This document shows, piece by piece, positions 61,406-61,549 of a stretch of DNA of 64,000 nt. The DNA is from Streptococcus mitis (GTDB lineage: Bacteria > Bacillota > Bacilli > Lactobacillales > Streptococcaceae). The stretch is from NCBI GenBank assembly GCA_032481955.1, contig JAWERV010000004.1, positions 2,634 to 66,633 on the forward strand, in the 5' to 3' direction. The notes beneath the pieces were generated by a model. It searched no databases, was not told the origin of the DNA, and saw only the letters and a list, made by a program, of their open reading frames with translations. Within the stretch, counting starts at the first letter, position 1; the number at the start of each line of letters is the position of its first letter. Made by a program: the position numbers and the translations under genes.

Positions 61406-61477
61406 TAGTGCGGTGTACTGCTGCTGAAGGCAGGCAGGTACACCAGCACATATATGCGGTTCGTTATATGTCTAGGG

Positions 61478-61511
61478 TGTTGTGTAAAGCTAGTATTACC
61501 TTTACACAACA
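61478..61511 (+). other. Putative rolling-circle nick site/oriT stem-loop with TAGTATTAC
   Basis: 12-bp perfect stem TGTTGTGTAAAG/CTTTACACAACA, loop CTAGTATTAC, 38 bp upstream of rep. Confidence 0.85.
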
Positions 61512-61549
61512 TCAAAGACAAGACAAAAAGAAAGTAAGGAATTTATAAC

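Follow-up and report, generated by a model that had tools for sequence, protein, structure and literature searches.

The window analysed here (the whole stretch of 64,000 nt of Streptococcus mitis DNA) contains a hairpin that is very probably the replication and transfer origin of a mobile element, because relatives in many bacteria keep it. We consider it very likely that this hairpin serves a pCRESS1 integrative element as its double-strand origin for rolling-circle replication, with a predicted nick between positions 61497 and 61498; judging from gene order, it is probably the oriT of the element as well. What seems to be new is the explicit link to viral origins, the restriction of the origin to one clade of Reps and a candidate iteron code.

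RESULTS

Anatomy and rarity of the origin hairpin

The nonanucleotide TAGTATTAC, located by sequence scans at 61491..61499 of the + strand, forms the 3′ end of a 10-nt loop (61490-61499) closed by a perfect 12-bp stem with arms 61478-61489 and 61500-61511 (stem-loop 61478..61511, + strand). The ATG of the Rep gene, at 61550, lies 38 nt past the stem and 59 nt from the nonamer. An earlier note on this DNA had described this nonamer in the loop of a perfect 12-bp stem upstream of a Rep gene, and our sequence scripts reproduced the description. DNA folding lengthened the stem-loop to ∼61469-61520 (z −6.0, 0/200 shuffles) and gave z −7.1 for the region that holds both the nonamer hairpin and a second hairpin. 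The nick that the note had placed between 61497 and 61498 (TAGTATT^AC) agrees in its position within the nonamer; the exact cut position is borrowed from viral Reps, and remains a borrowed one because these Reps accept many nonamer substitutions (PMC7826260).

Without a stem the nonamer is common: TAGTATTAC was present in 42 of 100 shuffles of the window, and the nonamer by itself was therefore dropped as evidence. The combination with a stem is rare. There are 21 exact copies of TAGTATTAC in the 2.16-Mb genome; a perfect stem of at least 8 bp surrounds two of them, while the other 19 have stems of at most 3 bp. Both stem-bearing copies sit upstream of a pCRESS1-type rep gene, one in the window and the other on contig C33. 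No match to nonamer plus stem turned up in 4,865,010 shuffled bases.

Viral origins have stems of 9–11 bp and loops of 10–13 nt and are cut between −1 and +1 (PMC7826260). With the nonamer in a 10-nt loop on a 12-bp stem, the window hairpin has the geometry of a CRESS-type origin (loop of 10–13 nt, stem of ∼9–11 bp). The virion-strand origins of Circoviridae and Nanoviridae, like that of the window, have the nonamer at the 3′ side of a 10–11-nt loop, with a variable stem (PMC7826260; PMC10880892), repeats beside the stem, a Rep with HUH and SF3 domains and a candidate specificity residue by motif I. Unlike these viruses, the window element is bacterial and integrated; it lacks a capsid, is linked to a coupling ATPase and is known here from sequence. 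A scan for promoters and terminators gave counts at shuffle level, with nothing at the nonamer hairpin; Rfam miRNA matches to the hairpin, far under gathering scores, were rejected as chance hairpin matches.

A second, GC-rich imperfect hairpin lies at 61408..61449 (+ strand, fold z −4.6). It is real, as the earlier note had it; the span 61412-61444 given there is the inner part of the full structure. The second hairpin is retained, with changes, in nine aligned streptococcal origins and is not universal, as other clades have unrelated hairpins or none. At one locus (L035:1944-2109) the entire cassette of second hairpin, nonamer hairpin and repeats is inverted relative to rep, with the TcpA-rep-xis-int module intact. 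Single-strand origins are found at the last-displaced position, just 5′ of the nick. The second hairpin lies just 5′ of the predicted nick, so it would be displaced last and could conceivably act as a single-strand-origin or priming signal on the displaced strand. In a search for GNA triloops on stems of at least 5 bp, 10 of 84 origins were positive on the nonamer strand versus none on the opposite strand (the positives may be kin), and with 3-bp stems the counts were 21 versus 14. The second hairpin of the window folds with a 5-nt loop; the GNA triloop as a feature of this hairpin is a lead only.

The Rep protein

The rep gene (61550..62785, + strand) encodes a 411-aa protein assigned to the pCRESS1/Rel_PF02407 type by Pfam, alignment and fold. 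The protein joins an HUH nuclease to an SF3 helicase (PF02407 and PF00910, each below cut-off), and the SF3 domain is intact. Motifs predicted from sequence include motif I (F14-N20), the HUH residues H94/H96, the catalytic Y132 (YxxK), an ssDNA-bridging motif around H118, Walker A (G222-S229) and Walker B (D267-E268). In the alignment of pCRESS1 Reps (A1) residues Y132, K135 and S307 are invariant, as is H118, whose surrounding motif is PCV2-like (PMC7826260). As in pCRESS1, motif III is YxxK and not YLxH, and helicase motif C has no Asn.

The top fold matches of an AlphaFold model of Rep (pLDDT 90) were the Reps of a redondovirus and of PCV2, and profile matches likewise pointed to PCV2 and redondovirus Reps; as modelled, Rep is structurally closest to CRESS-virus Reps. 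Strong matches to Rep (E below 1e-60) were found in 15 of the 301 streptococcal genomes searched. Rep shares 90% identity with an S. oralis protein of 411 aa and 77% with one from S. iniae (the query, P0001, equals the window Rep but for one residue).

The integrated element and its host genome

The element is 10,087 bp long, has 33% GC versus 38% outside and is integrated in tRNA-Leu. Its left attachment core (19 bp, 54359..54377, + strand) is identical to C4:67079-67097, the 3′ end of tRNA-Leu(CAA). Apart from the first gene, all genes are on the + strand. In order, the element carries an LPXTG surface protein with a SEC10/PgrA surface-exclusion domain as cargo (55398..57941, − strand; TIGR04320, E 5e-68), an HTH_3 regulator detected by the Pfam scan (58066..58395), a 118-aa protein (59262..59618), an FtsK/TcpA-type ATPase of 389 aa that is a candidate coupling protein (59622..60791; PF01580, E 4.8e-7), a 205-aa protein with a hydrophobic N-terminus (60788..61405; ORF list and Pfam scan), the two hairpins, Rep, a DUF771 protein in an excisionase-like position (62850..63188; Pfam E 4e-21) and a 380-aa tyrosine integrase (63241..64000) that runs past the window to the tRNA-Leu(CAA) end. 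The 118-aa protein had no Pfam match; an Atlas lead to a DUF961 cluster (score 0.91, 13% of members) suggests that it is possibly an SSB/DUF961-like helper. A 14-pair terminator-like hairpin lies between the DUF771 and integrase genes (window 63190-63220).

No capsid family was found among the 10 ORFs scanned, and the 10-kb, integrated element is unlike a Cressdnaviricota virus. In one isolate run a single 10,125-nt contig spans the element. The contigs of four public runs showed no circle junction, and depth over the element was about that of the flanks, which on contigs only is a weak test.

The element is of a known kind, pCRESS1 (Kazlauskas 2019) or equivalently Class_IME_7 (Coluzzi 2017), because gene order, protein lengths and Rep identity match. 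In the pCRESS1 exemplar StrOra-E1 the sizes are Int 376, DUF771 113, Rep 411, FtsK 389 and PgrA 840 aa (PMC6668415); the window element has the gene order and protein lengths of this integrated plasmid (StrIni-E1 is another pCRESS1 example), and its membership was matched by organism, length and gene order to the published S. oralis member. Unlike the published pCRESS1 examples compared, the window element integrates in tRNA-Leu. Class_IME_7, or Rel_PF02407, elements have TcpA, a PF02407 relaxase, an excisionase and a tyrosine integrase in the same compact order (PMC5357655; PMC5704250), and all of these, together with att repeats, are present here. The available part of PMC5357655 describes only two members of the class, and that of PMC5704250, an IME review, gives the S. 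iniae PF02407 element only proposed helpers.

The same genome holds a second pCRESS1 element near the rpsD end of contig C33 (L002:9730-13618). Its Rep is 47% identical to the window Rep and its nonamer, 112 nt before rep, is the same as in the window, on a different 8-bp stem and with TGACA repeats. In tandem with it is an element with a helicase-less RepB (PF01719; L002:1596, 1679-2260). The RepB element, with a loop of the type that carries the nick motif in pMV158-family double-strand origins, has the same origin geometry as the window (10-nt loop ending in AC, 12-bp stem); its nonamer is another one and its Rep, unlike that of the window, has no helicase domain. On contig C34 there is an ICE with a MOBT relaxase and a VirB4-like ATPase (L266), a possible helper, which we take to be Tn916-like partly by ORF sizes; a 644-aa ORF sits at what is presumably the tet(M) position.

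Conservation of the hairpin upstream of related Reps

Loci were drawn from GTDB genomes, metagenomes and IMG/VR, with Reps in three alignments: A1 (pCRESS1), A2 (pCRESS2-like) and A3 (p4M-like). The first test required the nonamer within one change and a stem of at least 7 bp. Positive in GTDB were 32/34 A1 loci (17/19 clusters at 90%; some genomes were counted twice) and 11/13 A2 loci (3 were excluded because the upstream was short or the N-terminus missing). Metagenomes gave 69/73 A1 loci (5 dropped), and IMG/VR gave 6/7 A1 (1 dropped) and 58/68 A2 loci (15 dropped). When pooled, with a cluster scored positive if any member was positive, 84 of 94 clusters at 90% identity and 54 of 62 at 70% had the hairpin. 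Of the origins, 58 had a loop of 10 nt and 23 one of 11 nt, and the 5′ stem arms of the 84 origins comprised 71 distinct sequences.

Because this test itself selects for stems, it was repeated in a stem-blind form, with one member per 90% cluster and with two possibly viral circles (L167, L171) left out. Upstream of homologous rep genes, where the earlier note had proposed to search for the motif, the nonamer was found at a distance of at most 340 nt in 83 of 92 clusters (pCRESS1, pCRESS2-like and filamentous-phage-like), with 75 exact matches and 0/92 in controls. All eight of eight stem positions were Watson–Crick pairs in 68 of these 83 positives, and at least seven in 76. Stem pairs 2–8 show all four pair types and G–T occupies 4 of 664 cells; the origin stems covary freely. 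Thus the feature noted earlier in a bacterial chromosome is real and, rather than a one-off, is general to bacterial Reps of pCRESS1-3 type.

Among the nine stem-blind misses, five had the site 398-1082 nt upstream, one (L103) was cut short and three (L225, L227 and L228, with pCRESS1/2-type Reps) had no nonamer within ∼1.5 kb. L104, a sibling of L103, has its nonamer ∼3 kb downstream. The hairpin was located just 5′ of rep on the coding strand in 81/84 cases; in L035 and L189 the nonamer is on the strand opposite to rep.

The two loci left out, L167 and L171, are contigs of 2.6 kb and possibly viruses; their Reps are pCRESS2-like, the origin is on the minus strand, and an ORF on the opposite strand has no Pfam match. 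Another IMG/VR contig with a pCRESS2-like Rep carries an Rfam RAGATH-8 RNA (L123:2100-2375, 261 bits) ∼1.4 kb from the rep start.

Other Rep classes, plasmids and phage-like genomes

The nonamer origin is restricted to pCRESS1-3-type Reps: the hairpin was found at 0/17 YLxH-type or low-scoring Reps used as a negative control. A different conserved loop is present at 15 of 16 streptococcal YLxH loci; in this set (L251-L265) a conserved hairpin near the rep start, with a GGGCT(T/C)GT-type loop, offers a candidate nick site. In the YLxH-type plasmid L108, one of four weak plasmid matches described next, whose rep starts at base 1 so that upstream wraps round the circle, the linear record has no such hairpin.

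The plasmid collection yielded p4M and four weak matches to the helicase half, and the phage collection eight weak matches to Rep. The p4M plasmid is free, with Rep as its only annotated replication protein; 47 nt before rep it has the one-base variant TAGTGTTAC, with a stem of 8 bp. In a bacterial pCRESS2-like element (L094 in genome G330), the nonamer 740 nt before rep is of geminivirus type, TAATATTAC; its stem has 9 bp, and the site is flanked by the FtsK gene and a gene for 119 aa.

Among the IMG/VR cluster representatives that have the origin, 18 of 38 stand beside a Zot-family assembly ATPase and five beside FtsK (at most three neighbours per locus were scanned, and none for three loci); with 18/38 beside Zot, the Rep–origin pair therefore occurs in filamentous-phage-like genomes. 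Filamentous-phage-like gene sets with pCRESS1/2-type Reps were seen at L104, at L102 (read from ORF layout only, its upstream being cut) and at 17 other IMG/VR loci. Tisza 2020 had already described inovirus-like genomes with CRESS Reps.

Iteron-like repeats and a possible Rep code

To the right of the stem, AGACA occurs twice in tandem (61516..61525, + strand), with an inverted copy at 61469-61473; this iteron-like repeat is a candidate Rep-binding site. Tandem repeats after the stem were found in 61 of 84 clusters, versus 6/84 mirror windows and 136/1680 random windows, and an inverted copy is present in 38 of the 61 versus 124/1220 random.

For 74 Reps with a repeat call we compared the residue four before motif I (K10 in the window Rep) with the central dinucleotide of the repeat. 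The pairs were K–AG in 9/10, R–TG in 19/20, V–TT in 6/6, S–GG in 6/7, Q–TC in 14/22 and N–AT in 3/5 (the repeat-calling rule was altered twice after data inspection). On a FastTree tree built without the Rep N-terminus, 20 changes were common to the K10 column and the repeat (23 and 26 changes), the top rank among 268 columns; Q104, located ten residues past H94, is second with 19 shared changes, and other columns with 17-29 changes share 4-15. Close relatives switch residue and repeat together (L123 versus L111/L139; L080 versus L077/L089). Formal independent-pair tests of residue against iteron gave none at p 0.05, the pairs being too few. Counting against a code is the physical linkage between the origin and the 5′ end of rep, since the two could move as one unit.

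The pattern, suggestive and not formally significant, is that one Rep residue just before motif I tracks the repeat sequence as in geminiviruses, with K10 and Q104 as candidate iteron-specificity residues. It resembles the iteron-related domain and the second determinant described for geminivirus Reps (PMC10880892).

DISCUSSION

Proposed mechanism

The integrase would excise a 10.1-kb circle, and Rep would bind the tandem repeats right of the stem. By analogy with circovirus and nanovirus Reps, the hairpin would then extrude and Y132 would cut at 61497/61498, staying on the 5′ end. The SF3 domain could unwind the DNA so that the + strand is displaced, rep first and second hairpin last. The displaced Rep-bound strand may be recircularised, and the excised circle maintained in this way, or it may, as the Tn916-like gene order suggests, be passed by the TcpA-type ATPase to a helper ICE.

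Alternative explanations

The hairpin might be an oriT only; Rep would then serve as the relaxase when a helper ICE mobilises the element, and the excised form would not replicate. Tn916 and ICEBs1 have their oriT between a TcpA-type gene and the nickase. The window hairpin is in the same setting, a surface-exclusion gene is part of the element, a Tn916-like ICE is on C34 of the same genome and Rep is classed as a relaxase in Class_IME_7 (PMC5357655). We nevertheless find this rather unlikely: p4M and the loci with a neighbouring Zot ATPase combine this Rep type with this origin, and there the evident role is replication; Rep has an intact SF3 helicase domain; and in Tn916 and ICEBs1 the RCR-type relaxases serve replication as well as transfer (PMC5704250).

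That the hairpin acts as a structured RNA, either an sRNA or a cis-regulator of rep, is how Rfam files it. Rfam RF03070 (‘ssNA-helicase RNA’; Gene; sRNA), whose source we take to be Weinberg 2017, has as its consensus the same loop and stem geometry with a downstream tandem repeat, that is, the nonamer hairpin plus repeat. Five of the 40 loci tested reach its gathering score, and the usual place of the hairpin, just 5′ of rep on the coding strand, would suit an RNA. The window scores 26.9 bits, below the gathering score of 41.5; an RF03070 scan of the genome itself gave no match, and neither did the control. An RNA role is very unlikely, because the strand is inverted at L035 and L189, the hairpin can be up to 1082 nt upstream or ∼3 kb downstream and G–T pairs are nearly absent; furthermore, the invariant loop is a known DNA nick signal and there is no terminator-like site at the window hairpin.

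A captured eukaryotic virus remnant or an assembly chimera, to which the exact circovirus/nanovirus nonamer and the viral Reps as closest solved structures might point, can be dismissed with near certainty, given that no capsid gene is among the annotated ORFs, that the integrase is bacterial and the target a tRNA, with att repeats of 19 bp, that the S. oralis (StrOra-type) element of the Kazlauskas supplement agrees in gene order and protein lengths, that Rep recurs strongly in 15/301 genomes and that a 10,125-nt contig crosses the element.

Relation to earlier work

Returning to the hairpin as a rolling-circle origin, whether it had been reported was left open in the earlier note, and the answer is in part yes. 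It is already partly catalogued as RF03070, although the term ‘ssNA’ is absent from the main text of Weinberg 2017. One sentence of a 2011 review holds that rep and the virion-strand origin seem to be conserved between three virus families and two bacterial plasmid families (PMC3187698); the statement stands in its introduction, a section without data on the point. A phytoplasma plasmid with an 8-of-9 variant of the nonamer (PMC3154185) and a pCRESS9-like circle with a TAATATTAC loop (PMC7183601) have been described. Gibbs 2006 (p4M) or the supplement of Weinberg 2017 may already state the virus-like nonamer.

We found no paper that maps the origin in pCRESS/IME elements in a search largely confined to literature outside subscription. 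The main text of PMC6668415 and its supplements 1–12 of 14 mention no nonanucleotide or stem-loop, TATTAC appearing only within quoted Pfam text. The available parts of PMC5357655, PMC5704250 and PMC8780604 give no origin, oriT or nic site for PF02407 elements, and those of PMC2702318 and PMC8530359 hold no origin data.

Significance

The claim that a cis-acting origin is common to this element and eukaryotic ssDNA viruses gains support from the nonamer with covarying stems upstream of homologs, from the virus-like geometry and from the CRESS-like Rep. As pCRESS1-3 are sister to circo-, nano- and smacoviruses (PMC6668415), the origin signal was, most simply, probably inherited from an ancestor common to these groups. 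So far this sister grouping rested on proteins; common descent gains independent support from a shared cis origin that carries the exact nonamer and that the tested YLxH Reps lack. The origin also predicts a nick site and an oriT for an IME class that has no published ones in the available parts of the papers examined, and it lets the Rfam ‘sRNA’ RF03070 be re-read as a DNA origin. The nonamer hairpin is a short marker for finding such elements, and the many natural Rep–iteron pairs could be used to test origin recognition by HUH initiators.

A broader reading, for which we would put the chances at somewhat under even, is that the origin logic of circo-, nano- and geminiviruses (nonamer hairpin, iterons and residue code) is bacterial and predates the viruses, one module serving as double-strand origin and oriT in IMEs, plasmids and filamentous phages, and the residue four before motif I, with a second near motif II, picking the iteron. 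If true, RF03070 would be recast as a DNA origin, Rel_PF02407 elements would gain their first nic/oriT, and CRESS-type initiation could be studied genetically in bacteria, with dozens of natural specificity pairs to draw on.
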